Assembly: GCA_050506795.1 (NCBI GenBank)
Contig: JBJHCF010000014.1
Span: forward strand, 2,846-66,845
Direction of reading: 5' to 3'
DNA length: 64,000 bases
Source of the DNA: Opitutia bacterium
GTDB taxonomy: Bacteria; Verrucomicrobiota; Verrucomicrobiia; Opitutales; T3Sed10-336
Shown: piece after piece, positions 33,556 to 51,700 of the stretch
How the letters are laid out: each line of letters starts with the position of its first letter
Numbering within the stretch: position 1 is the first letter of the stretch
Translations under genes and position numbers: made by a program
The notes under the pieces: generated by a model
Seen by the model: the letters and a program-made list of their open reading frames with translations, nothing else
Told to the model about the DNA's origin: nothing
Database searches by the model: none

Positions 33556-33799
33556 AGATCTCGTCGCGGGTCAGGGGTTTGACCACCTTTTTCGATGATT
33601 TCGCCCTGGAATCGGCTATGCGATAAAGTTCCTCAAGCGAAGCGATACGTTGCGCCTCGGGATCCGATTCCTTCGCTTCTTCCGACGCCAGGAAATCCCG
33701 CACCATCGCGCTCACGGAGGTGCCCCGCTTCGCGGCCCGGATTCGTGCCTTGCGGTAAGTTTCCTCGTCGATCTTCAACGTGATGTTCTTTGTTTTCAT
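33536..33799 (-). CDS. Ribbon-helix-helix (CopG-like) antitoxin
   Basis: 87 aa. 'ITLKIDEETYRKARIRAAKRGTSVSAMVRDFL' has an RHH pattern. Coupled to the VapC gene. Confidence 0.75.
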   Translation of the reverse strand: MKTKNITLKIDEETYRKARIRAAKRGTSVSAMVRDFLASEEAKESDPEAQRIASLEELYRIADSRAKSSKKVVKPLTRDEIYAERLR

Positions 33800-34044
33800 A
33801 ATGGCACATTAACTGTGCGTCTGTGCCAAGTCAAGACTGGCACTAATGTAACACCCTTGTCCTGGATGCCGACCATTTCAGTGTTTAAGTGCGTTGGAGG
33901 TGGGTGGTCAAAACTTCGATCAATCCACCGCCGCCCAACATCCTGGCCTGTCGGGGATTCCGTGAGGGAAAGGCTTGCGAAGGAGGTAGGGGACTGGTTT
34001 CCTTGGCATTGGATTTCCAACGCCCGGCCCCGGCCGTCCCAAAA

Positions 34045-36453
34045 ATGCGCACCCAGACCGAAGCCGATACTTGCCGCACGCTTGTCCTGCCCAGGCTTTA
34101 TGCCGCGGGCTGGAACGACGACCAGATTGCCGAGCAGCGTACATTTACGGACGGACGGATTGTGGTCACGGGAAACAAAGCGTGGCGGCGTCCGCGGAAG
34201 CGGGCCGATTACCTCCTTCGGCACCGGCCGGGGCTGCCGCTGGCGGTCATCGAAGCCAAGGCGGCTCACCGTCACCCCTCCGACGGCATCCAACAAGCCA
34301 GGGAGTACGCGGAGATACTCGATCTTAAGTTCGCCTACACCACCAACGGCCGCGAAATCCTCGAATTCGACTTCATCACCGGCAAAGAGACCCTCCTCAA
34401 GGAGTTCCCGACTCCCCGGCAACTCCTCCGCCGCCTCAACGCCTACCTCGGCCTGCCGTCCGCCGAGCAGCAAAAGCGCTTTTTCGACCCGCCGCCTCAC
34501 GCGCCCTCCGCCAAGGAACCGCATTACTACCAGCAAATCGCCGTCAACCGCACCGTCCGGGCCATCCTCCAGGGCCGGCGTCGAACCCTGCTCACCATGG
34601 CCACCGGCACCGGCAAGACCGTTGTCGCCTTCCACATCTGCTGGAAACTCTGGTCCGCCAAGTGGAACGCCAAGAACGACCCCACCCGCAAACCCCGCAT
34701 CCTCTACCTCGCCGACCGAAAGTTCCTGGTCGATGACCCCAAGGACAAAACCTTCGCTCCCTTCGGCGACGCCCGCCACAAGATCGAGGGCGGCGCCGTT
34801 GTCCAAAGCCGCGAACTCTACTTCTCCACCTACCAGTCCCTCGCCCGCGACGAGAATCGCCCCGGCCTCTACAAGGAATTCGCGCGCGACTTCTTCGATC
34901 TCGTGATCGTGGACGAGTGCCATCGCGGCAGCGCCCGCGACGAGTCCAACTGGCGCGAAATCCTCGAATACTTCGAGCCCGCTTACCAACTCGGCATGAC
35001 CGCCACCCCGCTGCGCGAGGAAAACCGCGATACCTACCTCTACTTCGGCAACCCCCTCTACACCTACAGCCTGAAACAAGGCATCGACGACGGATTCCTC
35101 GCTCCCTACCGCGTCCATCGCATCGTCACCGAATGGGACGCCGCCGGCTGGCGCCCCAGCAAGGACGACCTCGACCGCTACGGACGCCGTATCCCCGACG
35201 AACTTTACGGCACCCCCGACTTCGAGAAACGCGTCGCGCTGTTCAAACGCACCGAAGCCATCGCCCATCACCTCACCGCCTTCCTCAAGCGCACCGACCG
35301 CTTCGCCAAGACCATCGTCTTCTGCGTGGACCAGGAACACGCCGCCGAGATGCGCACCCTCCTCAACAACCTCAACGCCGACCTCGTCCGGCAACACCCC
35401 GACTACGTCGCCCGCGTCACCGCCGACGAAGGCGACACCGGCCGGGGCCACATGCAGCGCTTCCAGGATGTGGAAACCCGCAGCCCCGTCATACTCACGA
35501 CGTCGCAACTCCTCACCACCGGCCTCGACGCCCCCACCTGCCGCAACGTCGTCCTCGTGCGCCTCGTCAACTCCATGGTCGAGTTCAAGCAAATCATCGG
35601 CCGCGGCACCCGCGTCCGCGAGGAATACGGGAAACTCTGGTTCAACATCCTCGACTACACCGGCGCCGCCACCCGCAACTTCGCCGACCCGGAATTCGAC
35701 GGCGAGCCCGCCTTCGCCGACCGGGAGGAAATCGACGCCGAAGGCAACACCACCAAAACCGACATCGAACAACACGAACAAACCGCCCCCGACGAGAACG
35801 AACCTCCCGCAGGCGACGACGGCGCTACCCGATACGACGAACCTCCGGATCCATACGGCCCGGACACACCCCCGCCGGAGCGCCGCAAATTCTACTACGA
35901 CGGCGGCCAGGTGGAAATCGCCACCGAACTCGCCTATGAACTCGACCCCGACGGCAAACAACTCCGCGTGATCCAGCTCACCGACTACACCGCCGAAAAG
36001 GTCCGCACCCTCTGCGCCGACCCCGACGAACTCCGCGCCCGCTGGACCGACGCCGCCCAACGCGCCGAAATCATCCAACAACTCGCCGACCGCGGCATCG
36101 ACTTCCAGCAAGTCGCCCTCTAGGCCGGCCAACCTGACGCCGACCCCTTCGACCTCCTCTGCCACCTGGGCTTCAATGCCCCGATCCACACCCGCCGCCA
36201 ACGCGCCGACCGGGTAAAGAAAGACCAAGCCGAATTCTTCGCTCTGTTTGGTGCGGAAGCCCGCGAAATCCTGACCGACCTCCTCGAGAAGTACGCCGCC
36301 GACGGCGAACTATCCTTCTCCCTACCCGACGTCCTCAAAGTCCCGCCGGTTTCCCAACACGGCAACGTGAACGAAATCATCGGCAAATTCGGCAACTCGG
36401 AAAAGCTCCGGGATGCGGTAAATCAACTGCAAGTTCTGCTGTATGCCTCATAG
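34045..36453 (+). pseudogene. hsdR: Type I restriction enzyme R-subunit-like gene (EcoEI/type IB-like: N-terminal PD-(D/E)xK nuclease, ResIII/DEAD helicase, EcoEI_R_C tail) interrupted by an in-frame TAG at 36121-36123
   Basis: ATG 34045 gives 'MRTQTEADTCRTLVLPRLYAAGWNDDQI...ADYLLRHRPGLPLAVIEAKA' (nuclease motif). 'YYQQIAVN', 'MATGTGKT' (Walker A), 'VIVDECHRG' (DExH), 'TSQLLTTGLDAP', 'QIIGRGTR'. After the TAG the same frame continues without a stop to TAG 36451-36453: 'AGQPDADPFDLLCHLGFNAPIHTRRQRADRVKK...VLKVPPVSQHGNVNEIIGKFGNSEKLRDAVNQLQVLLYAS'. This is the conserved EcoEI_R_C-type tail. The stop is codon 693 of 802. Confidence 0.8.
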
Positions 36454-36519: not shown

Positions 36520-36587
36520 GCCCCGAAAGAAAACCGCGGAAAGGTCCGCGCACCCCACGGTTCACATCAAATTTGTTGTTGCTGCGT

Positions 36588-36941
36588 ATGGAATTCACAG
36601 TAGAGTTTTATGAATCGAAAGAAGGACGGTGTCCGATGCGTGAATTTCTCGACGATCTCAAGGCAACCGATCCCGGCGATTTTGCTGCCGTTGTCGCCGG
36701 GCTGGCCAAGCTGCGCATCAGCCAGTACCACCGCCCGCCGCTCTCCAAGGCGCTCGGCGACGGTTTGCTGGAACTGCGCCACGTCGGCAAGCTCAATACC
36801 CGCGTGCTTTGGTTTTTTGTGAAAGGACGCCGCATCGTCGCCGTTCATGGTATCCGCAACAAAGGCCAGAGCATTCCCGCCCGCGATCTCGCAACGGCTC
36901 GGGCACGCAGGACCGACTGGCTGGAAAGGCATCGCCCATGA
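36588..36941 (+). CDS. higB: RelE/ParE-superfamily toxin (HigB-like, phage Gp49-like/DUF891 type)
   Basis: ATG 36588 gives 'MEFTVEFYESKEGRCPMREFLDDL...GDGLLELRHVGKLNTRVLWFFVKGRRIVAVHGIRNKGQSIPARDL', a typical Gp49-like killer. The stop overlaps the next ATG (ATGA at 36938). Confidence 0.8.
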   Translation: MEFTVEFYESKEGRCPMREFLDDLKATDPGDFAAVVAGLAKLRISQYHRPPLSKALGDGLLELRHVGKLNTRVLWFFVKGRRIVAVHGIRNKGQSIPARDLATARARRTDWLERHRP

Positions 36942-37291
36942 AGAAGGCGAATTTCGATCAATACCTGGAGGAACAACTCAAGGATCCCGAGTTCGCCCAA
37001 CGCTTTGCGAAGGCAGGCGAGGCATGGGAGTTGGCGCTTGAGATCGCCCGCCTTCGCGAAGAAGCCGGCCTTTCTCAAAAGGAACTCGCCAAACGCCTCG
37101 GAACCACCCAGCAACAAATCAGCCGTATCGAGTCCCCGGCCTACGAAGGCCATTCCCTAAGCATGCTCCGCCGCCTGGCGGCCGCACTCGATAGGGACGT
37201 GAAAGTGATCTTTGAACCTCGGCATCGCGAGAAAACCCACGCCGTGAACGAGAAACCCGCCCGTTACAGAACCCGAGGGACAAAAAGATGA
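36938..37291 (+). CDS. higA: XRE-family HTH antitoxin (HigA-like)
   Basis: 'LREEAGLSQKELAKRLGTTQQQISRIESPAYEGHSLSMLRRLAAALD' is a classical Cro/C1 HTH. Translationally coupled to the toxin. Confidence 0.85.
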   Translation: MKKANFDQYLEEQLKDPEFAQRFAKAGEAWELALEIARLREEAGLSQKELAKRLGTTQQQISRIESPAYEGHSLSMLRRLAAALDRDVKVIFEPRHREKTHAVNEKPARYRTRGTKR

Positions 37292-38257: not shown

Positions 38258-41200
38258 ATGTCCACCCGCTTCTTTACCAACGCAGGCACGAAGACGCTCT
38301 TCGCCAAATTGGAAGGGGTGTTCCATCACAATCCCGATATTGAGCGATTCGACGCCCTCGTTGGCTACCTGCGCGCCTCCGGCTACTTTGCACTGCGGCC
38401 ACACCTTTCCAAGGTTTCGAAAGTTCGCATCCTCGTTGGGATCGACGTGGATGAAATCGTTTCCGACTACCACAAGCGAGGACTCCTCTTCCTCGCCGAT
38501 CCGACCAAGGCCCTCGAGGATTTTCAGAGCCGTCTCAAGGCCGACATTCAAAACGCCGAATACCGGGCCGATATTGAGGCTGGCATTTTGAGTTTCGTGG
38601 AGGATGTCGTCTCCGGAAAACTGACGATCAAGGCTCACCCCACGAAGCGGTTGCACGCTAAGATCTACATATTTCTTCCCATCGGCTGGTGCGAGCACAA
38701 ACCCGGCGCCGTTATCACGGGCTCATCGAATTTAACCGCCGCCGGACTCGGCGTCGAGGAGCAGTCGCGCAATTACGAGTTCAACGTCCTCCTTCACGAC
38801 TATGACGATGTGAAATTCGCGTCCGACGAGTTCCATAAACTTTGGGAGGAATCTGTCGATGTTCTGCCCAAAACCGTCCTGGCGGTTCGCGATTCCACCT
38901 ACCTTGCAACCACAATCACCCCCTACGAACTCTACTACAAACTTCTCGCCGAATACTTTGGTCCGGCGGTGGATTACGATCCCAACGCCGTCTCAGACCT
39001 TCCCGACGGCTTCAAACGCCTGAGTTACCAAATTGACGCTGTGAACAACGGTTATCGTCTACTTGAAAGGCACAATGGCTTTTTCCTTTCCGATGTCGTC
39101 GGCCTCGGAAAAACCGTCGTGGCGTGTCTCATCGCGCGGAAATTCTTTTTCCATAACGGGTTTCCCGACCATCGCTCCAACACACTCGCGATCTGTCCGC
39201 CTGCGATGGAGGATGATTGGCGTGAAACTAAAGACCGCTTCCGCCTCGACAACTTCGACATCGTTACCAACGGCTCACTACACAAGGTCCGCAATCCGCA
39301 AAAATACGACCTCATCATTATCGACGAGGCCCACAAGTTCCGCAACGACACCGCCGAAGCCTTTGACGATCTCCAGCGCCTCTGTAAATCCGGCACATTG
39401 CGCAAATTGTCCGACGGATCCGTTGCCGAAAAGAAGGTCATCCTCGTCTCGGCTACTCCGCTCAATAACGCTCCGCAAGACATCCGCAACCAGCTTGCCC
39501 TGTTCCAGGATCTGAAGCGCTCCACGCTCAGCGTTGGCAACCTCCAGCACTTCTTCGCGCAGTGTGACCGTGAGTTCCGCGCGGCCAAGAGGGAACCGAA
39601 TATTGAGGCCGCACGCCGAGCGGTGGTCGCTATCTACGAGCGCATCCGCACCAAGGTCATCAGCGAGATCATCGTTCGACGCACCCGCACGGATCTCCAC
39701 GAAAATGAAGACTACCGTCGCGATTTGGAAGAGCAGGGTGTGCAGTTCCCGCAAATCGAGCGGCCCCGGCACATTCTCTACCCGTTGACACCGGAGCTTG
39801 AGGCACTCTACGACCGCACCATCCAGATGCTCACCTCTGGGACCCCGACCAGCCTTACCTATAACCGCTACCGCGCCCTGACATTCCTGCGTGCCGACCT
39901 CAAGAAGAAGTATCACAACGCCGATCGCATCTCCCAGCAACTCGCCACCATCATGCGCACCTTGCTGGTGAAGAGGCTCGATAGCTCCTTCTACGCCTTC
40001 ACCGCCTCCCTACGCCGCTTTCAGGAAGCCACCCGCGTCATGATCGAAATGTTCGAGCGCGGCACCATTTACATCGCCCCCAACCTGCCGGTGAATCAGC
40101 TCATCCTCGAAGGGCGCGAAGAGGATCTTGTTTCCCTGATCGCCGAAAAACGGGATGCCGATCCCACCATCGAGGTTTGCGAACCCGCGGATTTTTCCGA
40201 TGACCTTCTCTCCGGGCTCCGCCTCGATCTTGATCGTGTGGCACCCATCCTCGCCGACTGGGAGGAAGTGGTCGCCTCCAATCAGGATCCCAAGTTCGAC
40301 CTGTTTTTACGCCGTCTGCGCGACGAACTGCTCAACCGCGAAATCAACCGTGACGGCAAACTCGTTGTCTTCTCCGAATCCCGTGAGACGACCGATTACC
40401 TCACCAAGCGCCTTTCCATCGCCGGAATTGACCGCGTCCTCACCGTCGACGCGGGTAACCGTAACGCCAGCCGCGACGATATCCGCGCCAACTTCGACGC
40501 CAATTACCCCGGCAAGCGGCGCAATGACTACGATCTCATCATCTCCACCGAAGTGCTCGCCGAGGGCGTCAACCTGCATCGTTCCAACATTATAGTTAAT
40601 TACGATACCCCGTGGAACTCCACCCGCCTCATGCAGCGCATCGGCCGCGTTAACCGCATCGGTTCGCTCGCGCCCCGAGTCTTCATCTACAACTTCTACC
40701 CGACCGCGCGCGTGGATGACGACATCGAGCTGCGCAAGAAGGCCATCATGAAGCTTCAGGCCTTCCACTCCGCCCTCGGCGAGGATAGCCAAATTTACTC
40801 GACCGATGAAGAAGTGGATACCTTCGGCCTCTTCGACAAGACCCCCGAGGACAACGAGCGCGACGAGCGTCTCACACTCCTCATGGAATTACGCCGCTTC
40901 CGTGCCGAGAATCCGGAGCAGTTCCGCCGCCTCGCGAAACTTCCCGCCCGCTGCCGCGTCGGGCGTGCCGACGCCGTCCGCGCCCGAAGCACTATTGCCT
41001 TCATCCGCAATGCCCACCGCGACGCCTTCTATCGCATTCAGCCCGATGCCGACCCCGAGGAAATCAGCTTTACCGAAGCAGCCATTGAGTTCCGCGCCAC
41101 CCACATCGATGAACCCGCGATTCCCCTGCACGCGGAGCACCATGCGCAGGTCAATACCGCCACCGCCGCTTTCCGCGAGGCGGTCGTCGCCGACACACTC

Positions 41201-41566
41201 GCGCCGCTGGCGGTCGAGGCGAAACAAGGACCCAATGAAAAACGCGCTCGCGACTTTGTGGATGCATTTCTCGCCTTCGACTTCATCAGCGATGAAGAGC
41301 GCCGCCTCATCCGCCTCGCCAAGCTCGCACTAGCCCGCGCCCGCTACGCGAGCCTTCAACGCGAAATCAACAAACTCCAGCGTAACACGAAAAAGGTGAA
41401 GGTGACTCCCGCCGTCCTCGCCGATAAACTTTTCGACATCCTCCGGGAGTATAAGCTGGAGGACATGGAAAATCAGGGTGTTGGCGTGACCGAGGCCATC
41501 CGTCGGGCCGAAACCGAGCCCGAGATCATCCTCACCGAATCCTTCGACCATCTGACCCAAGCATGA
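38258..41566 (+). CDS. PLD-family (HKD) nuclease domain fused to an SNF2/DEAD-type helicase (1102 aa)
   Basis: N-terminal HKD motif 'RLHAKIYIF...ITGSSNLTAAGL' (about 38654-38737). Helicase motifs 'VVGLGKTVVA', 'IIIDEAHKFRN' (about 39323), 'LVSATPLNN', 'STEVLAEGVNLH', 'LMQRIGRVNRIGS'. The stop overlaps the next start (ATGA 41563-41566). Confidence 0.85.
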   Translation: MSTRFFTNAGTKTLFAKLEGVFHHNPDIERFDALVGYLRASGYFALRPHLSKVSKVRILVGIDVDEIVSDYHKRGLLFLADPTKALEDFQSRLKADIQNAEYRADIEAGILSFVEDVVSGKLTIKAHPTKRLHAKIYIFLPIGWCEHKPGAVITGSSNLTAAGLGVEEQSRNYEFNVLLHDYDDVKFASDEFHKLWEESVDVLPKTVLAVRDSTYLATTITPYELYYKLLAEYFGPAVDYDPNAVSDLPDGFKRLSYQIDAVNNGYRLLERHNGFFLSDVVGLGKTVVACLIARKFFFHNGFPDHRSNTLAICPPAMEDDWRETKDRFRLDNFDIVTNGSLHKVRNPQKYDLIIIDEAHKFRNDTAEAFDDLQRLCKSGTLRKLSDGSVAEKKVILVSATPLNNAPQDIRNQLALFQDLKRSTLSVGNLQHFFAQCDREFRAAKREPNIEAARRAVVAIYERIRTKVISEIIVRRTRTDLHENEDYRRDLEEQGVQFPQIERPRHILYPLTPELEALYDRTIQMLTSGTPTSLTYNRYRALTFLRADLKKKYHNADRISQQLATIMRTLLVKRLDSSFYAFTASLRRFQEATRVMIEMFERGTIYIAPNLPVNQLILEGREEDLVSLIAEKRDADPTIEVCEPADFSDDLLSGLRLDLDRVAPILADWEEVVASNQDPKFDLFLRRLRDELLNREINRDGKLVVFSESRETTDYLTKRLSIAGIDRVLTVDAGNRNASRDDIRANFDANYPGKRRNDYDLIISTEVLAEGVNLHRSNIIVNYDTPWNSTRLMQRIGRVNRIGSLAPRVFIYNFYPTARVDDDIELRKKAIMKLQAFHSALGEDSQIYSTDEEVDTFGLFDKTPEDNERDERLTLLMELRRFRAENPEQFRRLAKLPARCRVGRADAVRARSTIAFIRNAHRDAFYRIQPDADPEEISFTEAAIEFRATHIDEPAIPLHAEHHAQVNTATAAFREAVVADTLAPLAVEAKQGPNEKRARDFVDAFLAFDFISDEERRLIRLAKLALARARYASLQREINKLQRNTKKVKVTPAVLADKLFDILREYKLEDMENQGVGVTEAIRRAETEPEIILTESFDHLTQA

Positions 41567-44500
41567 CCCGCGACGAATTCCGCTCCCTCCTTCAATCCCC
41601 CTATGACCGCTCGCGGTGGCTGGCGGCACTCCCGGCCTTCCTGCCCGCGATCGAAATCTTCGCGCGGCCACAATCGCTCGATTTTTCGACCGAGGCGGTC
41701 AGTTCCGCCGTGCAACTCGCCCGCATCCCACTGCCCGACGACCGCAACGTCGCCGTGCTCGAAGTCCGCGTCAGCGGCCAGGTGGATCTGCAACGCAATC
41801 GCGCGGGCCTGCGCAAGCTCGTCGCCCGCTACATCGGCTCGCCTTCGGCGGATGCCGTGCTCGCCTTTTTTGTCGGCGCTTCACCGGACTACCGTTTCTC
41901 CTTTGCCGCCCGCACCAACGCCATCACCACCGACGGCCAACATGAGCAAAAGGATACGGCTCCCCGCCGCTACACCTACCTCTTTGGTCCCGGCCAACCC
42001 TGCCGCACCGCGGTGGAACGCTTTGAACTGCTGCGTTCGCTTGGAAACCGCACGCAACTCGCCGATCTCATCAATGCCTTCCAGGTCGAGCCGCTGTTCA
42101 AAGAGTTTTACCGCGACTACGGAAGAGTTTTTGATGCCGTTGAAAACCATATCCGCCCGTCTCTCACCGGAAAGGAGCCGCTGCGCCTCTTCACCCAGCG
42201 TCTCTTCAACCGTCTCATGTTTCTGGCTTTCGTCGAGCGCAAGGGCTGGTTAAAGATGGGGGAACGCACGGACTACCTTGCCGCGCTGTGGGACGACTAC
42301 ACGAGCAAGCGCCGTACCGCGTCCGCCTCCGCCAACTTTTACGCCGACCGCCTGGTCCCGCTTTTCTTCGAGGGATTGAATCAACCCGACCGCGCCCCCG
42401 GCACCGTCGATCCGCGCTTTGGCGCCGTGCCCTACCTCAACGGCGGACTCTTTGAATACGCCGAAGACGGCACCGACCGCCTGCCCAAACTCCGCGTGCC
42501 CGATGAGGCCATCGCTCTCATCCTCGACCCCGAGACCGGCCTCTTTTCCCGCTATAATTTCACTGTGGTCGAGGACGACCCTTTCGAGAAAACTGTGGCC
42601 GTCGATCCCGAGATGCTCGGCAAGGTTTTTGAGGAACTCGTCACCGGCCGCCATGAACAGGGCAGCTACTACACGCCCAAGCCCATCGTCGCCTTCATGG
42701 CCCGCGCCGCCCTGGTTGAGCACCTTGCCGACCGCTGCCCGGGCGAACCCCGCGCCGCCCTGGAAGCCTTTGTCCACGAGGACGACGCCTCCGGACTCCA
42801 CGATCCCGAGGCCGTGCACCGGGCATTGATCACCATCAAAGTCTGCGATCCCGCCTGTGGTTCCGGCGCCTACCTGCTCGGCATGCTACACGAGCTGCTC
42901 GATCTGCGCACTCGCATCTTCGCCTCACGGCAAAAGGCCGATCCCGAGACCGCCTACCAACGCCGCCTCCAGATCATCGAGCGCAACCTCTACGGGGTTG
43001 ATAAAGACGCCTTCGCCGTCAATATCGCCCGCCTGCGCCTTTGGCTCGCCCTCGCGGTCGAGTTCGAAGGCCCGGTCCCGCCACCCCTGCCCAACCTCGA
43101 TTTCAAAATCGAGATCGGTGACGCCCTCGCCGCCCCCGCGCCCCAGGACATTTTTCAACGCCCGGCGGTCGAAGAGTTTCGCGACAGAAAGGCCGCTTAC
43201 CTCCGCGCCCACGGCGAAGAGAAGGAGAAACTAAAGGCCGAACTCGACCAAATCCGCGCCGATCTCGCCCTCTGGCAGCAGGCCGACCTCTCCGGCCATG
43301 GCTTCAACTGGGCCGTCGAATTCGCCGAAGTGTTTCTACCCGACGCTGAGGAACGCGCCTTGCTCGGCGACCTGCTCGTGCAAGAAGACGCACCGCCCTC
43401 CGTCCGGCCAGGCGGCTTCGACATCATCGTCGCCAATCCGCCCTACGTGCGCATGGAGTTGATCAAGCCGCAAAAACCCATCCTGCGCAAACGCTTCCCC
43501 CAAGTCCACGCCGAGCGGGCCGACCTCTACGTCTATTTCTACGCCCGCGCCCACGAACTCCTCCGGCCCGGCGGTGTCGCCGCCTTCATCTCCTCCAATA
43601 AATGGCTCCGCGCCGGCTACGGCGAAAAACTTCGCCAACATCTGCTCGATGATCAGGCGTTTCGGCTGGTTATGGACTTTGGGGCCTTGCCGGTCTTCCA
43701 ATCCGCGACCGCTTACCCATGTATTTTCGTTTGGCAGAAGCAAGACCGCGGTGAAATTTCAACAGCGTGGGCCAAGGTGACAGATTTGGATCGCTGCTAC
43801 GCTGACGGGGTTCGGCAGCACTTTCTTTCGCTGAATACTCAGGTGCCTGCAGATCAGTTCGGCGTTGGTCGGCCACGCTTGGCTACGGGTGCGACTGCCA
43901 ACCTTAAAGACAAGATGGTGCAGAATGGCCGTCGGTTGGGAGAGGTTTGCAACGGGCTTTTGGGTTGGGGAGTTAAAACGGGCCTAAACGAAGCGTTCAT
44001 CATTGACGAGGCGACACGCAACCGCCTGATCCATGAGACCCCGGATGCAAGTGAGATCATAAAGCCTCTCGTTGCAGGCAACGACGTCAGGCGGTTCGAC
44101 GTCCAATTTCGCCGGAAGTATCTAATCTATGCCTACCGCGGAATAGAAGTTTCTCGGTATCCATCCATCGAGCGGCATTTAAGGCCGTTTCGCTCCTTCA
44201 AGAACGCTAAGGGCCAAACCGTTGGTCTGGATCATCGTGCGACTAAGCAGGAGTGGTATGAATTGCAGCAACCCCAGATGGCCTATAAGAACTACTTCGA
44301 GAGCCGGAAAATCATTTATCCTGACATTGGCAAAGAGCTTCGTTTTGCAATGGACGATGTAGGCTATTACGGTGCGAATACGACCTACTTTTTACCGGTC
44401 GCGGATTGGTTTCTTTGCGGTGTGCTTAACTCGTCTCCAGTTCTGAAATGGATCGAGCTTAGCTTGGCCGACATTCGAGGCGGCTACCTCCGTTTCTTCG

Positions 44501-45594
44501 GCCAACACATGGAACAGCTTCCCATACCCGACGCATCTCCGGCCGACCGCGAGATCGTCGGCAACCTCGCCAAGCAGGCCCAGACCCTCCACGCCCAACG
44601 CCGTGCCCGCAGCGAGCAATTTCTCCGTGCCCTCGGGCTGGATCCGGCCGACAGCACCTCGCGCAACCCGCTGGAGCAGCCGTGGTCCCTTGCGTCCGAC
44701 GACTATGCAAAACGCGTCCGCAAGCTTCAGGGCCGCGCCGCGGACCTAAAACTCTATGAAGCAGCGCGTGACGAAACGGCTGCTCTGACAGAACAGATCG
44801 CCAAGGTCGAGGCCGAGATTGATGCCCGCGTGGCCGCCCTCTACGGCCTCGATGCCGAGGACCAGCGCTGGGCCGCCCAATCCGCCCCCGCCGACGGCAA
44901 GCAAACCCTCTTCTTCGATCTACTCGGCAAACTCAAGGGCCGCCGTGCTCACTTCTCGCTAACGGAAGTTCAGGCGGCCGTCAACGAGGCCGAACTCTCC
45001 CTCAGGGACGACACCCTGAAGGTTTACCTCAGCGAGGCGACCCAACAGGGGCTCATCCACGATGCCGGACGCGGTTGGTATACCCGCCACGCCAAACCGC
45101 TCAAACTGGATCCCAAACCGGTGCAAAAGCTCATTCGCGCGACCAAAAAAGCGCTGCCGCTACTCGACTTTTGCGCCTGGAGCACCGCCCAGCTCAACCC
45201 GTGGATGCAGCACCTCCTCGCCCAGCCCGTCGCCTTTCTCTACGTGCCCCGCGATACCCTCGAATCCGTCGGCGAAACCCTCCGCGCTCAGGGCTGGAAT
45301 GTCGCCGTCAACCCCGGCAAAAACGCCGCCCGCGAAGTGGTGCCCGGCGAGAAAACCGTCGTCCTCCGCCCCAGCCATTCCAAGCAGCCCCCGGATCACA
45401 ATCACCACGCCGCTCCCGAGCAAATCCTCGTCGAATTACTAATCGAAACCGAAGCCCTTGCGCTCATGGATGATTCCGAAGCCCGTGCCGCATGGATCGC
45501 TGCCACCGAAAGTGGTTCTGTGAAAATGGCTGAGATCAAACGATTTGCGGAATTCAAACATCTCCAATGGGACGATATTTGGCCAGCTAACTAA
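41563..45594 (+). CDS. Eco57I/PglX-like gamma-class N6-adenine DNA methyltransferase with TaqI_C-like TRD and a C-terminal AbiEi-antitoxin-like extension (1343 aa)
   Basis: 'LFNRLMFLAFVERKGWL' helical motif. Motif I 'VCDPACGSGAYLLG' (about 42841-42880). Motif IV 'IVANPPYV' (NPPY at 43435-43446). TRD motif 'GVKTGLNEAFIIDE'. 'ARVAALYGLDAEDQRW' is typical of the end of such MTases. A further ~240 aa follow (see the feature at 44875..45594). Confidence 0.85.
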   Translation: MTRDEFRSLLQSPYDRSRWLAALPAFLPAIEIFARPQSLDFSTEAVSSAVQLARIPLPDDRNVAVLEVRVSGQVDLQRNRAGLRKLVARYIGSPSADAVLAFFVGASPDYRFSFAARTNAITTDGQHEQKDTAPRRYTYLFGPGQPCRTAVERFELLRSLGNRTQLADLINAFQVEPLFKEFYRDYGRVFDAVENHIRPSLTGKEPLRLFTQRLFNRLMFLAFVERKGWLKMGERTDYLAALWDDYTSKRRTASASANFYADRLVPLFFEGLNQPDRAPGTVDPRFGAVPYLNGGLFEYAEDGTDRLPKLRVPDEAIALILDPETGLFSRYNFTVVEDDPFEKTVAVDPEMLGKVFEELVTGRHEQGSYYTPKPIVAFMARAALVEHLADRCPGEPRAALEAFVHEDDASGLHDPEAVHRALITIKVCDPACGSGAYLLGMLHELLDLRTRIFASRQKADPETAYQRRLQIIERNLYGVDKDAFAVNIARLRLWLALAVEFEGPVPPPLPNLDFKIEIGDALAAPAPQDIFQRPAVEEFRDRKAAYLRAHGEEKEKLKAELDQIRADLALWQQADLSGHGFNWAVEFAEVFLPDAEERALLGDLLVQEDAPPSVRPGGFDIIVANPPYVRMELIKPQKPILRKRFPQVHAERADLYVYFYARAHELLRPGGVAAFISSNKWLRAGYGEKLRQHLLDDQAFRLVMDFGALPVFQSATAYPCIFVWQKQDRGEISTAWAKVTDLDRCYADGVRQHFLSLNTQVPADQFGVGRPRLATGATANLKDKMVQNGRRLGEVCNGLLGWGVKTGLNEAFIIDEATRNRLIHETPDASEIIKPLVAGNDVRRFDVQFRRKYLIYAYRGIEVSRYPSIERHLRPFRSFKNAKGQTVGLDHRATKQEWYELQQPQMAYKNYFESRKIIYPDIGKELRFAMDDVGYYGANTTYFLPVADWFLCGVLNSSPVLKWIELSLADIRGGYLRFFGQHMEQLPIPDASPADREIVGNLAKQAQTLHAQRRARSEQFLRALGLDPADSTSRNPLEQPWSLASDDYAKRVRKLQGRAADLKLYEAARDETAALTEQIAKVEAEIDARVAALYGLDAEDQRWAAQSAPADGKQTLFFDLLGKLKGRRAHFSLTEVQAAVNEAELSLRDDTLKVYLSEATQQGLIHDAGRGWYTRHAKPLKLDPKPVQKLIRATKKALPLLDFCAWSTAQLNPWMQHLLAQPVAFLYVPRDTLESVGETLRAQGWNVAVNPGKNAAREVVPGEKTVVLRPSHSKQPPDHNHHAAPEQILVELLIETEALALMDDSEARAAWIAATESGSVKMAEIKRFAEFKHLQWDDIWPAN
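44875..45594 (+). other. AbiEi-like (type IV TA antitoxin, wHTH + C-terminal domain) region fused in-frame to the methyltransferase
   Basis: 'FSLTEVQAAVNEAELSLRDDTLKVYLSEATQQGLIHDAGRGWYTR' fits the AbiEi wHTH pattern ending in G-x-[LI]-x(3,4)-RG-x-Y. It is followed by 'AAPEQILVELLIETE', and the gene immediately downstream is AbiEii. Assigned by pattern recognition only. Confidence 0.55.
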
Positions 45595-45641
45595 CGCCAC
45601 AAATTCAAAAAATATGGCATTAGTTAATCGCATGTGAAGTT

Positions 45642-46745
45642 ATGTTCTCGGATCAGATTTACACCCGCGCCTGGGCCGACCGGGAACGCAAGAAGCTGGG
45701 AAATTGCGATCCCGGCTTGCTCGAAAAATGCGTCCGGGCGCTGACCCTGTTGGGGCATCTGGCGGAAAGCGAGCTCCCCTTTATGTTCAAAGGCGGCACC
45801 AGCATCCTACTTCACCTGCCGGAGATCCGCCGCCTCTCGATCGACATCGACATTGTTTCCCCGGCTTCGGATGCCGATCTGAACCGCGTCGTCGCTCAAA
45901 TCGCCCAGACCGCTCCCTTCATTCGCAGCGAAGAAGACATTCGCGGGACTGCTTCGGGACGCGAACTCTTGCCCAACCGCCGTCACTTCAAGTTCTGGTT
46001 CCCCAGCGAACGCGCCCAAACCGGAGAGGACTTCGTCCTGCTCGACGTGGTGCGGGAGGAGCACTGTCCGCATGACACCGTGACCTTGCCTATCCGCACC
46101 TCTTTCCTTGTCCCGGACCGGGAGATCACCGTCACGCTGCCCAGCATTGAGAGCCTGCTCGGCGATAAGCTCACCGCCTTTGCCCCGACGACGACCGGCA
46201 TCCGCCTGCGGAAGCACGGGGGAGAACCCGGCGATGTCATGCAAGTGGCGAAACAACTCTTCGATGTCGGCGTCCTCTTCGAACACGCTACCGATTTTGA
46301 GGCAGTCGCCCGCGCCTACAACGGCGTACAGGCGCAGGAATCCGGCTACCGGGACAATCTCCACACCCGCGAGGCCAGCCTCACCGACACCCTAAACGCC
46401 TGTCTCGGAATCACAGGTGAAGGGGTGCGCTACGCCCCGCCTACCCTCTTTCCCGAAAGGGCTTTGCTCCTCGATGGTTTCCATCGCCTACGGGGACACC
46501 TGACTCGAAGTCCTCCCAACGACAATGCCCGGCGCATTCTCGCCGCCCGCGCCGGTGTCTTGGCCGCGCATTTGCAAGCCAACCGGCTTCTCGACTTCTC
46601 CAGCGCCCGCTACACCCAAAGTCCCGATCAAATCGAGGCCCTGCGCGCTGCCACCCTAAACAACCACCCCCACGGCTGGCTAGACCGCATCAAGCAAACC
46701 AACCCGGAAGCCTACCACTACTGGCACCTCGGCCTGAATCTCTAA
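45642..46745 (+). CDS. abiEii: AbiEii/AbiGii-family nucleotidyltransferase toxin (type IV TA, DUF1814)
   Basis: 'FMFKGGTSILLHLPEIRRLSIDIDIV' matches the AbiEii GGT...R.S.D.D nucleotidyltransferase motif. 'LLGDKLTAF' is the second motif. Starts 48 nt after the MTase stop. Confidence 0.85.
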   Translation: MFSDQIYTRAWADRERKKLGNCDPGLLEKCVRALTLLGHLAESELPFMFKGGTSILLHLPEIRRLSIDIDIVSPASDADLNRVVAQIAQTAPFIRSEEDIRGTASGRELLPNRRHFKFWFPSERAQTGEDFVLLDVVREEHCPHDTVTLPIRTSFLVPDREITVTLPSIESLLGDKLTAFAPTTTGIRLRKHGGEPGDVMQVAKQLFDVGVLFEHATDFEAVARAYNGVQAQESGYRDNLHTREASLTDTLNACLGITGEGVRYAPPTLFPERALLLDGFHRLRGHLTRSPPNDNARRILAARAGVLAAHLQANRLLDFSSARYTQSPDQIEALRAATLNNHPHGWLDRIKQTNPEAYHYWHLGLNL

Positions 46746-46925: not shown

Positions 46926-48167
46926 ATGCTCAATGCATTCATTCATCCACCGTTTCATAACTGTCCTTATTGCGGTGCGCAAAAGACGTTCGGCAGAATC
47001 TCGGTTGGGGACGAGCACTATATCCGTGAATGCAAGTCGTGTGGAAAGCGGAAGCGGATTCGACTTCCTCCACTTAAAAAGCGGGTGATCTACTTGGATC
47101 AGTGGTTTCTCAGTGATTTGACCAAGCTCGACGATTCTAGGTTTGATCGTTCGAAGTTCAGACAACACCAGAGGTTTTTCGAGGAGGCTAACGATCTGCT
47201 GCATGATCTTGTCAGGCTCAAACTGGTGATTTGCCCCGCGAGCCCGATTCATTTCCGCGAATCAATTAGGTCAGCCAAAGTCGCACCAAAACGGGTGCTT
47301 GCCGTTCTAAAAGACCTCTCATGCGGCATCGTCCTTAAGGATCCTGACCAAGTTTTGTGCCATCAAGTTGAGCAGGCTCTAGACTGTTGGATCTCTGGAA
47401 GAGATTGCAACCATGACATCTATGCGCAGGAGATAGCCAAAGGTAAAATCAACTCATGGGCATCCGCTCAACTCAGTCACGACTTCACGCCTTATCGATG
47501 TTGTGAGCAGCAGCGCTTCGAAACCGAAAAAGATAGGCGTGCGGATCGACTGAGGTCCGTCATTAGCCGTTGGAAGCACCAATGCGCTAGAAGCTTCAGC
47601 GAAGACTTTGAAGAGGAGCGTCGAAGCGTCGCAAACACGTTCAGATTGAAGTGGGCAGATTTAGTGAACGATGCCGGAGCTTGCACAACGGATGGGCAGG
47701 AAGATGCGCTTTGGCGTCTTCTTGGGAATGATCGTGCCCACCTATTATCCAGGGCGATCAGAAAGATTGATCGACCTGAGGATCTCCGTGAGTTTTTTCA
47801 GTCGAAGGAGTATTATGGCATCCCGGCGATCAACGTTGAAGCCACGATCTGGGCGACCATTGCTCATATGGTCCAAGCTGGATCGAAAAACCTCGAAGAC
47901 CCCGGCCTCGGCAATGATGTCGCCTTTATCTCACGGTACCTCCCTTACGTTGATGTGCTTTGTGTGGACCGTGCTTTGTTCAATGCGCTTTCGCATCCTC
48001 ACTGTAAATCAGTCATCCGGGGCCGAGAGGTATTCTGCCTCAAAAATGGCAAAGAAAGCTTTCTCAAATTTCTGCGCGATCTTAGGATTTCGCCGGAGGC
48101 CAGGAGAAACGAGAAGCTCTTGGATGAAATCTATTCAACACACGGTCGAGGCCAACACTCAAAATAA
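46926..48167 (+). CDS. Hypothetical protein with N-terminal Zn-ribbon (CPYC...CKSC); possible split PIN-like acidic motifs
   Basis: 413 aa, ATG start, clearly lower GC than the flanks. 'CPYCGAQKTFGRISVGDEHYIRECKSCGK' (46962-47042). 'VIYLDQWFL' and 'NDVAFISRYLPYVDVLCVDRALF' loosely resemble the first and last PIN motifs but lie about 300 aa apart. No family recognised. Confidence 0.6.
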   Translation: MLNAFIHPPFHNCPYCGAQKTFGRISVGDEHYIRECKSCGKRKRIRLPPLKKRVIYLDQWFLSDLTKLDDSRFDRSKFRQHQRFFEEANDLLHDLVRLKLVICPASPIHFRESIRSAKVAPKRVLAVLKDLSCGIVLKDPDQVLCHQVEQALDCWISGRDCNHDIYAQEIAKGKINSWASAQLSHDFTPYRCCEQQRFETEKDRRADRLRSVISRWKHQCARSFSEDFEEERRSVANTFRLKWADLVNDAGACTTDGQEDALWRLLGNDRAHLLSRAIRKIDRPEDLREFFQSKEYYGIPAINVEATIWATIAHMVQAGSKNLEDPGLGNDVAFISRYLPYVDVLCVDRALFNALSHPHCKSVIRGREVFCLKNGKESFLKFLRDLRISPEARRNEKLLDEIYSTHGRGQHSK

Positions 48168-48308
48168 GATTCCGACAACAAACCCTCCGCAGGATCGCCG
48201 TGATTGGCGGGCGGGCGTGATTCTTGTTGAAGGAAGACAGAAGACGTCAGGTAACATGAAAGGGGAAACCTTTGGATTTGGGCTATACTAGAGCCTGTCC
48301 CAAGTTGC

Positions 48309-48326
48309 AATCGACTCTTAATCAGT
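48309..48326 (+). promoter_or_regulatory. 18-nt motif AATCG(C/A)CTCTTAATCAGT, site 2 (upstream of the protease gene)
   Basis: Read directly. 55 nt upstream of ATG 48381. Confidence 0.4.
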
Positions 48327-48380
48327 GATTTTTTTAATATTTTCGTTCAATTGGTACAATTCGAAATTTTAAGGGAATGC

Positions 48381-49370
48381 ATGGGCCTTGCCACTGAAAT
48401 ACTAAGATTCTTCCATATGGACTTTTCCGGACGCTCTAAGGCGCAAACTGTTCGGACTATCGAGGACTTTTCAAAGCTCAAACCCGAATGGCAAGAAACG
48501 CTTGATCTGGGGAGCGTCTTCAGGAATTGTTCGCATTTAGAACAACATGGATACCTTTTTGAAGCCACCTCTCGGCATCCTCACCCTATCCTTGGCCGAT
48601 CCTATGTTTCGCCTAGTTTCGATTATCGGCGTGCAGAGTATGGTGAGTATGATTTCATAGGCCATGGTTTCGGTTTAATCGTCGAAAAGCTCGGCCCAGC
48701 AGTACGCCCTGTCGTTGTGTCAAAGGCAGATGGAGAGGAAGATATTGGAACTTGTTTCCTTCTGGGAAATCAACAAACTATCGTCACCGCCCGTCATGTA
48801 GTGGAGGGAATGGCGCGCATTGTTATCCCTGATCCTGAAGGCAATCCTATAAGAATTCGTCAAATCACAGTTTCCGAAAACCCAAATCTTGACGTAGCTG
48901 TCATTCTTGCTGAATCTATATTGTCTAACCTACCTTGCTTTCGCTGTAGTGAATCGAACATTCTCGATGAGGTTCTTTGCCTTGGTTTTCCTCCGATCCC
49001 GGGATTCGAAGCTACGTTGATTGCGGATCTTGCAACTATTAATTCCGAAATTAGGGCATCGCGTGGTCGTGTGGTCGCATTGAGCGATTCGTATCTGGAC
49101 CGACAGAGTTACATTTTAATAAATGCGCGAGTCAAAGGTGGAAATAGCGGCGGTCCAATCGTTAATCGGCAGGGATATGTAGTGGCTATTCTCGTTCAGG
49201 CTTCCATGAGCTCGGAAGATTTGCATAGCCTTGATTCTCTTGGATATGGTGTCGCTACTCCTAAAGGTGAATGGATTGGGCTTTTTAGGGAATCGGAAAC
49301 AGGTATATGTTCCGGAGTTGATCTGCCATTTGAGAACTTTCCAGATGGTGGATTTCGAACAAAACTTTAG
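48381..49370 (+). CDS. Cytoplasmic trypsin-like (S1/Trypsin_2) serine protease with an unknown ~120-aa N-terminal domain
   Basis: ORF 48351..49370. ATG 48381 is preceded by AAGGGA (spacing 4 nt). Catalytic triad context 'IVTARHVV' (His), 'NLDVAVIL' (Asp), 'KGGNSGGPIV' (Ser, about 49140-49157). No signal peptide. Confidence 0.8.
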   Translation: MGLATEILRFFHMDFSGRSKAQTVRTIEDFSKLKPEWQETLDLGSVFRNCSHLEQHGYLFEATSRHPHPILGRSYVSPSFDYRRAEYGEYDFIGHGFGLIVEKLGPAVRPVVVSKADGEEDIGTCFLLGNQQTIVTARHVVEGMARIVIPDPEGNPIRIRQITVSENPNLDVAVILAESILSNLPCFRCSESNILDEVLCLGFPPIPGFEATLIADLATINSEIRASRGRVVALSDSYLDRQSYILINARVKGGNSGGPIVNRQGYVVAILVQASMSSEDLHSLDSLGYGVATPKGEWIGLFRESETGICSGVDLPFENFPDGGFRTKL

Positions 49371-50551: not shown

Positions 50552-51700
50552 ATGATTGCACGACCTTTCTGGGAAAAGCGCATTCGCGAGGCGTGGGAGC
50601 GGGCGCCGATCGCATGGCTCGCGGGGGTACGTCGGGTTGGAAAGACGACGCTCGCGAAGTTCTTTCGCGATGGCGAGTACCTGAACTGTGATCTGGCCCG
50701 CAATCGGGAGCGGTTGTCGGATCCGGAATTCTTCTTTCAGCAATGCGACGCCGGATTGATCGTGCTGGATGAAGTTCATAAGTTGGAGGATCCAAGCGAA
50801 GTTCTGAAAATCGCAGCGGATGAGTTTCCGGAAAAGCGTATCCTTGCCACTGGTTCTTCAACCTTGGCCGCCACTTCAAAATTCAGAGACAGTTTGACCG
50901 GGCGAAAACGCGTGGTCTTTCTACCCCCCGTGCTGGCGTCGGAATTGAAGGCATTCGGAAAGGCGTCGCTGGAGGATCGCCTCTTGTGGGGCGGTTTGCC
51001 ACCGTGCCTTCTCGGCTCCGGCTCCGATCCCGAGTTTTACAGTGAATGGTTCGACTCCTATTTTGCCAGGGATGTCCAGGAATTGTTCCGTGTCGGCAAG
51101 CGTACGGAATTTCTGAAGCTCACGGAATTATTGTTGCGCAACAATGGAGGACTGGCGGACATCACGACACTGGCAAAGCATAGCGGTCTCACCCGCCCCA
51201 CGGTGATGAACTACCTCGATATACTGGAAATCACCCATGTGATACACCGTTTGCGTCCGTTCCATAACGGCGGGAAGCGTGAACTGCTCGCCCGACCCAA
51301 AATTTACGGCTTCGACACCGGTTTCGTGTGCTACACCCGCGCGTGGTCCGAACTGCGCCCGGAGGACCGTGGAGGCCTTTTGGAAAATCTCGTACTCGAT
51401 CTCCTCAAGGCCGCCCTCCCCACGACGCCCCCGCTCTATTGGAGGGACAAACAGGACCGTGAAATCGATTTCGTCCTGCCCGGCAAACGCGACCACACGA
51501 TCGCTGTCGAGTGCAAATGGAGCAGCACAAAGTTCAATCCTTCAAACCTCGAGGTCTTTCGGCGCTATTACCCCAAAGGGGAAAATCTGGTCGTCACCGC
51601 AGGACCCGGAGACTCGGAGAGGCGACGTTTCGGTCAACTTGAAGCAACCGTCGTACCGGTTTATCGGCTGTTGGATTGGATGGACGCGCGCAAGAGTTAG
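50552..51700 (+). CDS. AAA-type ATPase with DUF4143 C-terminal domain
   Basis: Walker A 'GVRRVGKTTLA', Walker B 'LIVLDEVH'. The C-terminal 'YWRDKQDREIDFVL...AVECKWS' restriction-endonuclease-like fold is typical of the AAA_14/DUF4143 family. Confidence 0.85.
   Translation: MIARPFWEKRIREAWERAPIAWLAGVRRVGKTTLAKFFRDGEYLNCDLARNRERLSDPEFFFQQCDAGLIVLDEVHKLEDPSEVLKIAADEFPEKRILATGSSTLAATSKFRDSLTGRKRVVFLPPVLASELKAFGKASLEDRLLWGGLPPCLLGSGSDPEFYSEWFDSYFARDVQELFRVGKRTEFLKLTELLLRNNGGLADITTLAKHSGLTRPTVMNYLDILEITHVIHRLRPFHNGGKRELLARPKIYGFDTGFVCYTRAWSELRPEDRGGLLENLVLDLLKAALPTTPPLYWRDKQDREIDFVLPGKRDHTIAVECKWSSTKFNPSNLEVFRRYYPKGENLVVTAGPGDSERRRFGQLEATVVPVYRLLDWMDARKS

Follow-up and report, generated by a model that had tools for sequence, protein, structure and literature searches.

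A predicted two-gene HKD-Snf2/methylase restriction-modification-like system with an AbiE cassette and a methylase-fused antitoxin

Introduction

Three consecutive genes on the forward strand of a contig from an Opitutia bacterium (JBJHCF010000014.1, assembly GCA_050506795.1) raise the question of which kind of defence system they encode. They lie at positions 38258-46745 of a 64,000-nucleotide stretch of this contig, referred to below as the window. A sequence-only reading had described them as a two-protein restriction-modification (R-M)-like system, made of a helicase-nuclease and a giant adenine methylase, onto which an abortive-infection toxin is wired, and had found that they fit no defined architecture. 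Based on domain content and a comparison with related loci, we predict that the locus is an unnamed, widespread two-gene HKD-Snf2/methylase R-M-like system joined by an R-M-docking AbiE cassette, the antitoxin of which is fused to the methylase.

Domain organization of the three genes

Gene 1 (38258-41566, + strand; 1102 amino acids) encodes a predicted HKD (phospholipase D [PLD]-family) nuclease fused to a Snf2-type superfamily 2 (SF2) ATPase/translocase, as assigned from the open reading frame (ORF) call, Pfam and PADLOC. Gene 2 (41563-45594, + strand; 1343 amino acids) combines an N-terminal domain, an Eco57I-type gamma-class N6-adenine methylase, a TaqI_C target-recognition domain and a C-terminal AbiEi-like antitoxin domain. 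Gene 3 (45642-46745, + strand; 367 amino acids) encodes a putative AbiEii-family nucleotidyltransferase toxin (Pfam, PADLOC). The layout given by the sequence-only reading was recovered in full, including the ATGA at 41563-41566 (+ strand), in which the start codon of gene 2 (ATG, 41563-65) overlaps the stop codon of gene 1 (TGA, 41564-66), and the offset of gene 3, which starts 48 nucleotides past the final base of gene 2, that is, after a 47-nucleotide spacer. The overlap predicts translational coupling of genes 1 and 2. Promoter and terminator scans inside the operon gave no signal exceeding the shuffled background. PADLOC models were run on seven ORFs, genes 1-3 among them, and on 34 further ORFs of the window (41 in total), with a threshold of E<=1e-6.

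Every motif quoted earlier for genes 1 and 2 was found in the translations. A single HKD motif domain of gene 1 (38555-38845, + strand; residues ~100-196) contained HAKIYIF (133-139) and GSSNLT (155-160), with the pattern H133-x-K135 ... G155-S-S-N158, and was covered by the families PLDc_2 (100-196) and RE_NgoFVII (116-194). The Snf2/SF2 motor core (39011-40837, + strand) contained GLGKT (283-287), DEAH (356-359), SAT (398-400) and QRIGRVNR (793-800); it matched the Pfam families SNF2-rel_dom (1e-10) and Helicase_C (4e-17), and also ResIII. In an alignment with 15 homologues, H133, K135 and G155-T160 were unchanged and the helicase motifs were likewise invariant. Sequence matches of the motor in the PDB were the ATPase lobes of Chd1, ISWI and INO80. 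A search with gene 1 scored more than 7000 homologues, which are annotated as "helicase-related protein". The top PADLOC match was 'HKD+Snf2' C3a139 (1e-42), followed by DrmD (2e-38). The name C3a139 goes back solely to a catalogue of type III CRISPR accessory genes (PMC6546367), and the CRISPR link that it implies was rejected, as the locus has no CRISPR context.

The methylase catalytic core of gene 2 (42985-43746, + strand) contained the S-adenosylmethionine (SAM) motif DPACGSGAYL (429-438) and the catalytic motif NPPY (625-628), and matched the Pfam families Eco57I (residues 475-712, 5e-37) and N6_Mtase (615-728). It is preceded by a family-specific N-terminal alpha/beta domain (41563-42072, + strand; residues 1-170) seen in an AlphaFold2 model, and followed by a TaqI_C-like target-recognition domain (44065-44526, + strand; Pfam TaqI_C 835-988, 1e-14). 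Both methylase motifs were invariant across the gene-2 alignment. The region of the recognition domain was the most divergent part among homologues, which are annotated as "Eco57I ... domain-containing protein"; such fast divergence is as expected for the specificity module of an R-M system.

A conserved gene pair

Loci with homologues of gene 1 were scanned with one genome per species. The 80 loci obtained (44-90% identity) span Verrucomicrobiota, Bacteroidota, Desulfobacterota, Cloacimonadota, Fibrobacterota, Spirochaetota, Gammaproteobacteria and others, and the best homologues came from Opitutus and Puniceicoccales metagenome-assembled genomes. A gene-2-type methylase, including its family-specific N-terminal 400 residues, lay 3' of the gene-1 homologue in 64 of the 65 loci with at least 2.5 kb downstream, and the spacing was -4 nucleotides in many of them. 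The identities of gene 1 and of the gene-2 N-terminal domain co-varied (Spearman rho 0.87, n=63). Only three families recurred among 924 clustered neighbour ORFs: gene 1 (76 loci), the methylase (70) and AbiEii (19). The fourth most frequent was an ABC/SMC-like ATPase of ~620 amino acids (9 loci).

The conserved unit is therefore the pair of genes 1 and 2 and not the trio. The two-protein unit proposed by the sequence-only reading was thus borne out by the pairing, the frequent 4-nucleotide overlap, the co-variation and the defence-island context, and an R-M-like function would agree with them. Its trio needs correction, since AbiEii is optional (19-20 of 51 loci, ~40%) and is elsewhere replaced by the ABC/SMC-like ATPase or by nothing. 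When 68 large co-directional neighbour ORFs were compared with PADLOC, 174 different families were matched, none in more than three loci. The pair sits in defence islands without any further conserved partner, and none of DrmA/B, PglZ, BrxC or DUF499 recurs among the related loci.

A full-length gene-1 homologue with 51% identity was also present in Prevotella sp. oral taxon 299 F0039 (plasmid collection). There, a gene-1 homologue of 1090 amino acids is followed by ORFs of 464, 1172, 626 and 290 amino acids, which by size alone fit a methylase and then an ABC-type third gene.

Several loci carry additional genes in or behind the pair. VapC-type PIN genes lie between the gene-1 and methylase homologues in L042, L046, L051, L062, L073, L075, L077 and L078, and a small upstream ORF accompanies the inserted PIN genes in several loci (L042, L046, also L055). 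Other inserts between the core genes are ORF6N, Bro-N and HTH+M78 genes. The ABC/SMC-like ATPase (SMC_N, AAA_15, AAA_23) is the third gene in L009, L010, L011, L017, L020, L035, L037, L052 and L072; it overlaps or closely trails the methylase in most of these nine loci, with two ORFs in between in L035. Taking the place of the AbiE cassette, it may be an alternative back-up module. L072 contains two tandem gene 1-methylase systems.

The AbiE cassette

The AbiEii assignment of gene 3 was upheld by Pfam (AbiEii, 1e-22) and by a full-length PADLOC match (AbiEii, 2e-81). Its catalytic motif GGTS...SIDIDIV is intact, and G51, G52, T53, D68 and D70 were invariant in 18 homologues. In the PDB, the gene 3 profile gave a marginal match over the catalytic motif (E 0.37) to chain 6Y56, which is annotated 'Uncharacterized protein' and which we take to be MenT4.

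The partner of this toxin was located on the methylase. The tail of gene 2 (44878-45591, + strand; residues 1106-1343) follows the terminal 'LYGL' helix of the methylase ("RVAALYGL") and forms a DUF6577/AbiEi-like antitoxin domain according to Pfam (DUF6577 on residues ~1126-1334, 1e-22) and two PADLOC AbiEi models (3e-23 and 2e-20), both covered nearly end to end. Related methylases without the fusion are ~1100 amino acids long, consistent with a methylase end near residue 1106, so the methylase is "giant" because a DUF6577/AbiEi-like domain is fused to it in frame at the C-terminus. A free-standing protein of 253 amino acids, P0241, was 77% identical to residues 1106-1343, and the AbiEii next to P0241 was 76% identical to gene 3. 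From profile matches (hidden Markov models) and synteny, gene 2 is predicted to be a methylase::antitoxin fusion and gene 3 its cognate toxin. The toxin is thus wired onto the R-M-like pair, as had been proposed, in a form that was overlooked when the whole 1343 residues were taken as methylase.

The cassette is patchily distributed. Among 51 loci with at least 7 kb downstream, 20 carried an AbiEi-like domain and 19 AbiEii. The toxin was present in all 21 loci with an intact domain and downstream room, out of 23 with an AbiEi-like domain, and AbiEii never occurred without an AbiEi-like domain among the related loci. The scattered placement of the cassette on the gene-1 tree implies repeated gain or loss. 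The fused methylase-antitoxin architecture occurred in ~70 of the top 120 protein clusters, at 54-80% identity and in several phyla.

A search with the domain only retrieved 84 free-standing DUF6577 proteins of ~235 amino acids. AbiEii followed wherever the context was examined, so that the two form an autonomous two-gene module. Six free-standing contexts were looked up, each with AbiEii as the next gene: two type I operons, a 1128-amino-acid N6_Mtase/MmeI_Mtase/Type_ISP_C enzyme, an HSDR_N_2+N6_Mtase+Eco57I enzyme, a decayed MmeI-type gene and one housekeeping context. Five of the six were thus associated with R-M. An independent metagenome scan with DUF6577 gave 80 loci, of which 28 were fusions to gene-2-type methylases, with gene 1 upstream in 19/19 that had enough upstream sequence. 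Further in-frame fusions were found on a type IIG enzyme with an HSDR_N nuclease (L115), on another Eco57I/TaqI_C enzyme (L112) and on an uncharacterised N-terminal region of 640 amino acids (L163). About 48 copies were free-standing, and 14 of the 22 with evaluable upstream context were directly behind an R-M enzyme. These enzymes included a complete MmeI-family enzyme (L147), a type III-like Mod/Res pair (L145), a type I hsdR (L119) and several Eco57I/TaqI_C enzymes. This AbiE subfamily docks preferentially at the 3' end of adenine-methylase R-M operons, a tendency that is taken to its extreme by the fusion in the window.

Free-standing or fused DUF6577+AbiEii genes right behind R-M operons were seen in L082, L087, L088, L090, L103, L115, L119, L145, L147 and others. 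These operons were of the type I, MmeI-type IIL, HSDR_N-type IIG and type III-like kinds, and no description of so general a link between R-M and this AbiE subfamily was found. In three loci, AbiEii is followed by a RecD/UvrD-like helicase of ~1200 amino acids (L001 15799-19575, PADLOC PDC-S68 with E=0; L038 9814-13449; L039 11886-13646). In L110 (286-4719), a free-standing DUF6577 is preceded by a methylase ORF of 1478 amino acids (Eco57I/TaqI_C), the reading frame of which also encodes an IS200-like Y1 transposase domain (residues 671-746).

Comparison with known systems

By analogy, the locus appears to work most like a split Type ISP/Type III enzyme. Type ISP enzymes (LlaGI, LlaBIII) and, more loosely, Type III Mod/Res enzymes methylate one strand of an asymmetric site, and their cleavage needs two motors/nucleases to meet. 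The parts list is the same in Type ISP when domain content is compared: a nuclease, an SF2 translocase, a gamma-class N6-adenine methylase and a recognition domain. Methylation of one strand and two-motor cleavage are probably common to the locus and to Type ISP/III. The differences are that Type ISP is a single polypeptide, whereas two ORFs are joined here by the ATGA overlap; that its nuclease is of the Mrr/PD-(D/E)xK kind, in contrast to the HKD/PLD nuclease and Snf2-like motor here; and that no Type_ISP_C domain was found here with Pfam, while gene 2 carries an additional antitoxin domain.

The pairing of HKD + SF2/Snf2 effectors with methylases is an established theme, seen in PbeA and Type-2 BREX-related (BR) systems (PMC10853773, PMC12839542), and HKD+SF2 fusions are predicted restriction effectors of Pbe (PMC10853773) and of Type-2 BR (PMC12839542). 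In Type-2 BR/Hma-like DUF499 systems, the main restriction effector is predicted to be a Swi2/Snf2 helicase with an HKD endoDNase fused at its N-terminus; it is paired with an N6-adenine methylase, and the loci embed auxiliary 'back-up' toxins (Rakesh & Krishnan 2026, PMC12839542). Gene 1 shares the HKD + Swi2/Snf2 fusion (PLDc_2 + SNF2-rel_dom + Helicase_C, and the PADLOC 'HKD+Snf2' match). However, the defining features of Type-2 BR systems are a DUF499 ATPase and DUF3780, and their methylase is of the DUF1156 type (PMC12839542). The 41 ORFs of the window gave no HmaC/DUF499 match in PADLOC, the small upstream ORFs gave no Pfam match to DUF3780 or DUF1156, the methylase of gene 2 is of the Eco57I/TaqI_C type, and no large ATPase recurs beside the pair save the ABC/SMC-like protein of nine loci. 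An identity with Hma was rejected, as that system combines a DUF499 ATPase with an m5C-like methylase and a PD-ExK nuclease at the C-terminus (PMC11232893).

In class 1 DISARM, too, an Eco57I-like adenine methylase (DrmMI) occurs with a Snf2 helicase (DrmD) and a PLD nuclease (DrmC). The locus differs in that PLD and Snf2 are one protein, as opposed to the separate DrmC and DrmD, and in that DrmA/DrmB (DUF1998) were not found in the 41 window ORFs, bar a generic helicase-lobe similarity of gene 1, and were not recurrent in the 80 related loci. The PADLOC models of DrmC likewise had no match in these 41 ORFs. BREX is resembled in the predicted fold of gene 2, which is like that of PglX/BrxX, and differs in its PglZ, BrxC/L and BrxA/B, which had no PADLOC match in the 41 ORFs and were not recurrent in the related loci. 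The earlier statement that the window lacks the DrmA/B, PglZ and BrxC/L cores thus stands at the threshold used. Membership in DISARM, BREX, Hma/BR, Pbe and Dpd was rejected, since all matches were to shared helicase/methylase cores, far below cut-offs, and no core partner genes were present.

Gene 2 also resembles Type IIG/IIL enzymes (MmeI, Eco57I, BpuSI, DrdV, Cj0031) and PglX/BrxX in architecture and predicted fold, with a helical spacer, a gamma methylase and a TaqI_C/MmeI-like recognition domain. It differs from Type IIG/IIL in having no recognisable N-terminal PD-(D/E)xK nuclease and in its obligate motor-nuclease partner. The toxin layer resembles AbiE (AbiEi/AbiEii) and MenAT of M. 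tuberculosis in its AbiEii-family nucleotidyltransferase (DUF1814/PF08843) with an intact GG[ST]...DxD motif and a co-directional AbiEi-like partner just upstream; here, however, the DUF6577-type antitoxin domain is on an 1100-amino-acid methylase, in contrast to a free protein of ~200-300 amino acids. In PrrC-EcoprrI, a type Ic R-M enzyme restrains an anticodon nuclease, which is released when a phage attacks the R-M enzyme. The likeness to this system is one of concept, a translation-blocking toxin predicted to be kept silent by an R-M protein. The toxin families differ, with no homology found, and the locus has a dedicated antitoxin domain covalently on the methylase.

The claim that the locus fits no architecture therefore holds for DISARM, BREX, Hma/BR and Pbe and is too strong as regards the theme and the pairing. 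Milman et al. listed a PLD+SNF helicase beside a "Cj0031-like type II R-M" gene in Table 3 of their inversion-prone loci, without analysis or name (PMC9881135). The literature searched contained no description of an AbiEi-methylase fusion, of DUF6577 or of AbiEii with hsdR. Every part is thus of a known kind and the pair has been noted once in passing; for the fusion, no description was found.

Proposed mechanism

A model with two layers, an ATP-dependent R-M-like pair and an AbiE cassette with its antitoxin on the methylase, is in our judgement probable, with considerable room for doubt. In the first layer, gene 2 would use its TaqI_C-type domain to recognise a specific DNA site, probably an asymmetric one, and would methylate adenine (N6) there with SAM, thereby marking host DNA. 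Gene 1, translated in coupling with gene 2, would probably bind the family-specific N-terminal domain of gene 2 and contribute the HKD nuclease and a Snf2 motor that would pull DNA once an unmethylated site is found. PLD-family nucleases assemble one active site from two HKD motifs, as established for Nuc and BfiI. There is one HKD motif per gene-1 chain, and therefore cleavage should need two gene-1 chains, which could come from a standing dimer or from two colliding complexes. This requirement fits the collision-dependent cutting of Type ISP and Type III enzymes. The logic would be that of a Type ISP/Type III enzyme split into two polypeptides, with HKD replacing the usual PD-(D/E)xK nuclease.

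In the second layer, the AbiEi-like domain on gene 2 would keep AbiEii (gene 3) silent. MenT toxins modify tRNA 3' ends, and by analogy AbiEii would probably block translation, e.g., via tRNA 3'-end modification. The tether would make the antitoxin supply follow the amount and integrity of the methylase. Loss of the operon, or shut-off, degradation or sequestration of the methylase by a phage, would then free the toxin and stop growth, as abortive infection or addiction and as a back-up layer. The fusion suggests that the cell would kill itself if the methylase were lost or disabled. The phage inhibitor Ocr is known to act on PglX of BREX, and structure 8q56 was among the fold matches of the gene 2 model.

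More tentatively, DUF6577-AbiEii might be a general "R-M guard" cassette, a possibility to which we give rather less than even weight. Its antitoxin would monitor adenine-methylase restriction complexes (type I, IIG/IIL, III-like and the HKD-Snf2 pair) by docking or fusion, so that phage anti-restriction through binding, degradation or shut-off of the methylase would lead to tRNA-directed abortive infection. The HKD-Snf2 + methylase pair would then be a distinct, widespread, split ISP-like class, with a nuclease site assembled only when two motors meet.

Several points weigh against the two-layer model. The PLDc_2 match of gene 1 (E 7e-6) has 26.3 bits and is just below the gathering cut-off of 27. 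The DUF6577 profile showed no similarity to solved AbiEi structures when compared with the PDB, and the antitoxin role of DUF6577 rests on the PADLOC AbiEi models and on gene pairing. Retrieval of the related loci relied on, and was biased by, peptide patterns taken from gene 1 or DUF6577, and genes were called as simple ORFs, which makes the counts approximate. The cassette is missing from ~60% of the gene 1-methylase loci and is thus dispensable for the core function, and free-standing cassettes also lie beside housekeeping genes (L084-86, L133, L148). The association with R-M could reflect an insertion preference or defence-island clustering instead of functional coupling. Finally, we infer the roles in self-marking, restriction and abortive infection throughout.

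Alternative explanations

Of the alternatives, the one that survives best is that the AbiE cassette is functionally independent, a selfish toxin-antitoxin (TA) module landing 3' of defence operons, the fusion being a neutral loss of a stop codon. The free-standing relatives with 77% and 76% identity, the housekeeping contexts of some cassettes, the patchy placement and frequent lack of the cassette described above, and the insertion of other TA genes (VapC-PIN) into these operons are all in line with it. We nevertheless consider it improbable. The fusion has been kept in the ~70 protein clusters across several phyla, independent in-frame fusions occur on at least three other proteins, and placement behind adenine-methylase R-M systems of at least five architectures is far commoner than other contexts. 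Even if the cassette were an addiction module, the fusion would tie the dosage of the antitoxin to the methylase.

A second alternative concerns the source of the nuclease. Gene 2 could be a self-sufficient Type IIG/IIL enzyme like MmeI, Eco57I or Cj0031, with its divergent N-terminal domain acting as the nuclease and gene 1 being an accessory or an independent neighbour. Milman et al. named such proteins 'Type II R-M enzyme homologous to Cj0031' (PMC9881135), and the top PADLOC matches of gene 2 were 'REase_MTase_IIG' (4e-94 and 1.5e-77, the latter over residues 172-530). An AlphaFold2 model of residues 1-1125, with a predicted local distance difference test score (pLDDT) of 78, matched CamA and BseCI in the methylase and recognition domain, and PglX/BrxX (~1090 columns), MmeI, BpuSI and DrdV over nearly its whole length. 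The first ~140 residues formed an alpha/beta domain in the order alpha-beta-beta-beta-alpha-beta, which is typical of PD-(D/E)xK folds, and D59 (38 of 52 sequences) and E67 (45 of 52) were mostly conserved. The position of the putative catalytic lysine of PD-(D/E)xK, residue 69, was however variable (R15, E8, K6, H5 among 52 sequences); the invariant residues of the domain were R80, R84, R111, R136 and R153.

The searches also spoke against a nuclease. Foldseek gave no convincing match to the PDB (template modelling score at most 0.33) and no nuclease for a separate model of the N-terminal domain (pLDDT 89), the Pfam scan of gene 2 gave no MmeI_N or HSDR_N, and hhalign gave a probability of <1% against genuine MmeI_N/HSDR_N domains from related loci. 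The cryptic nuclease that had been suspected at the N-terminus of gene 2 was thus not found by conservation, Foldseek or hhalign, and at the level of sequence and model it is not supported. Methylases with a recognisable nuclease domain, L147 (MmeI_N) and L115 (HSDR_N), lack a gene-1 partner, whereas the gene-2-type N-terminal domain was present whenever gene 1 was present among the related loci, and gene 1 is coupled by the 4-nucleotide overlap and paired in nearly every locus. A self-sufficient gene 2 is therefore quite unlikely in our view. The N-terminal domain is more likely an interface for gene 1 or DNA, and as gene 2 has no detectable nuclease, gene 1 probably supplies cleavage.

It is also conceivable that the pair does not cut unmethylated invaders and instead acts by BREX-like exclusion without cutting, is modification-dependent (Type IV-like) or has a housekeeping/epigenetic role. 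BREX does not obviously cut DNA, and PglX/BrxX is the closest large enzyme to the methylase by structure. For PbeA-type HKD-helicase systems, activity with no detectable degradation has been reported (discussed in PMC10853773). The invariant HKD catalytic residues, the defence-island context, the fast divergence of the recognition domain, as in R-M specificity subunits, and the lack of BREX partners argue against this view, which we regard as very unlikely. Least credible of all is a decayed or minimal class 1 DISARM/BREX-type system with DrmD and DrmC fused, DrmMI/PglX kept and the core genes lost or elsewhere: gene 1 matches DrmD models (the PADLOC match given above and NCBIfam DISARM_DrmD, 4e-47) and gene 2 matches DrmMI (2e-33) and PglX (4e-26) and superposes on PglX/BrxX, but the scores are far under the curated cut-offs (161 vs 610 bits for DrmD; at best 89 vs 400 bits for NCBIfam BREX MTaseX [PglX]), DrmA/B, PglZ and BrxC were neither found in the window nor recurrent in the loci, no PADLOC family was shared by more than three loci, and the two-gene state is conserved over several phyla and is not a remnant.

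Genomic context

The module sits in a small defence/TA island amid housekeeping genes, among them those for a sodium:solute symporter, GH2 glycosidases and a TPR protein. Other members of the island are a vapBC-like pair, a higBA-like pair and an orphan type I hsdR, and 3' of gene 3 a Cys-rich protein of 413 amino acids, a trypsin-like protein and a DUF4143 ATPase. GC skew was negative over the ~33-48 kb island despite its + strand genes and positive in the flanks; this inversion suggests horizontal acquisition or an inversion of the segment.

In the type I HsdR gene (33889-36453, + strand; PADLOC REase_I 2e-190), an in-frame TAG at 36121-36123 breaks the reading frame, which then stays open to 36453. 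It is an orphan, as no hsdM/hsdS was found in the window, and is probably inactive. This broken hsdR is flanked by two small TA pairs (33103-33799, - strand; 36573-37291, + strand). One consists of a PIN/VapC gene with an upstream ORF of 87 amino acids, the other of a Gp49/HigB-like ORF overlapping an HTH_3 antitoxin-like ORF.

Straight after gene 3 (46926-49370, + strand) follow the 413-amino-acid protein, which has a Cys-rich N-terminus and no family, and a trypsin-like peptidase of 339 amino acids with weak PADLOC matches to RT-Protease_XI, PDC-M35A and LmuA. The two may be another two-gene defence candidate. An ATPase with AAA_14 and DUF4143 domains (50552-51700, + strand; Pfam) may extend the defence island. 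A PADLOC match to PDC-S01 (1e-52) was obtained in the ORF batch that holds this ATPase, and its assignment to the ATPase is assumed.

Significance

If the two-layer model is correct, current classifiers leave unnamed an ATP-dependent R-M-like family that is encoded by a very common gene pair. The methylase-antitoxin fusion would be a simple, testable case of restriction first and suicide second. DUF6577, of which no mention was found in the literature searched, would gain a function. PrrC/EcoprrI, the classic example of an R-M-slaved toxin, is to our knowledge otherwise rather isolated. One cassette behind many R-M types would suggest a general rule for slaving abortive-infection toxins to R-M.

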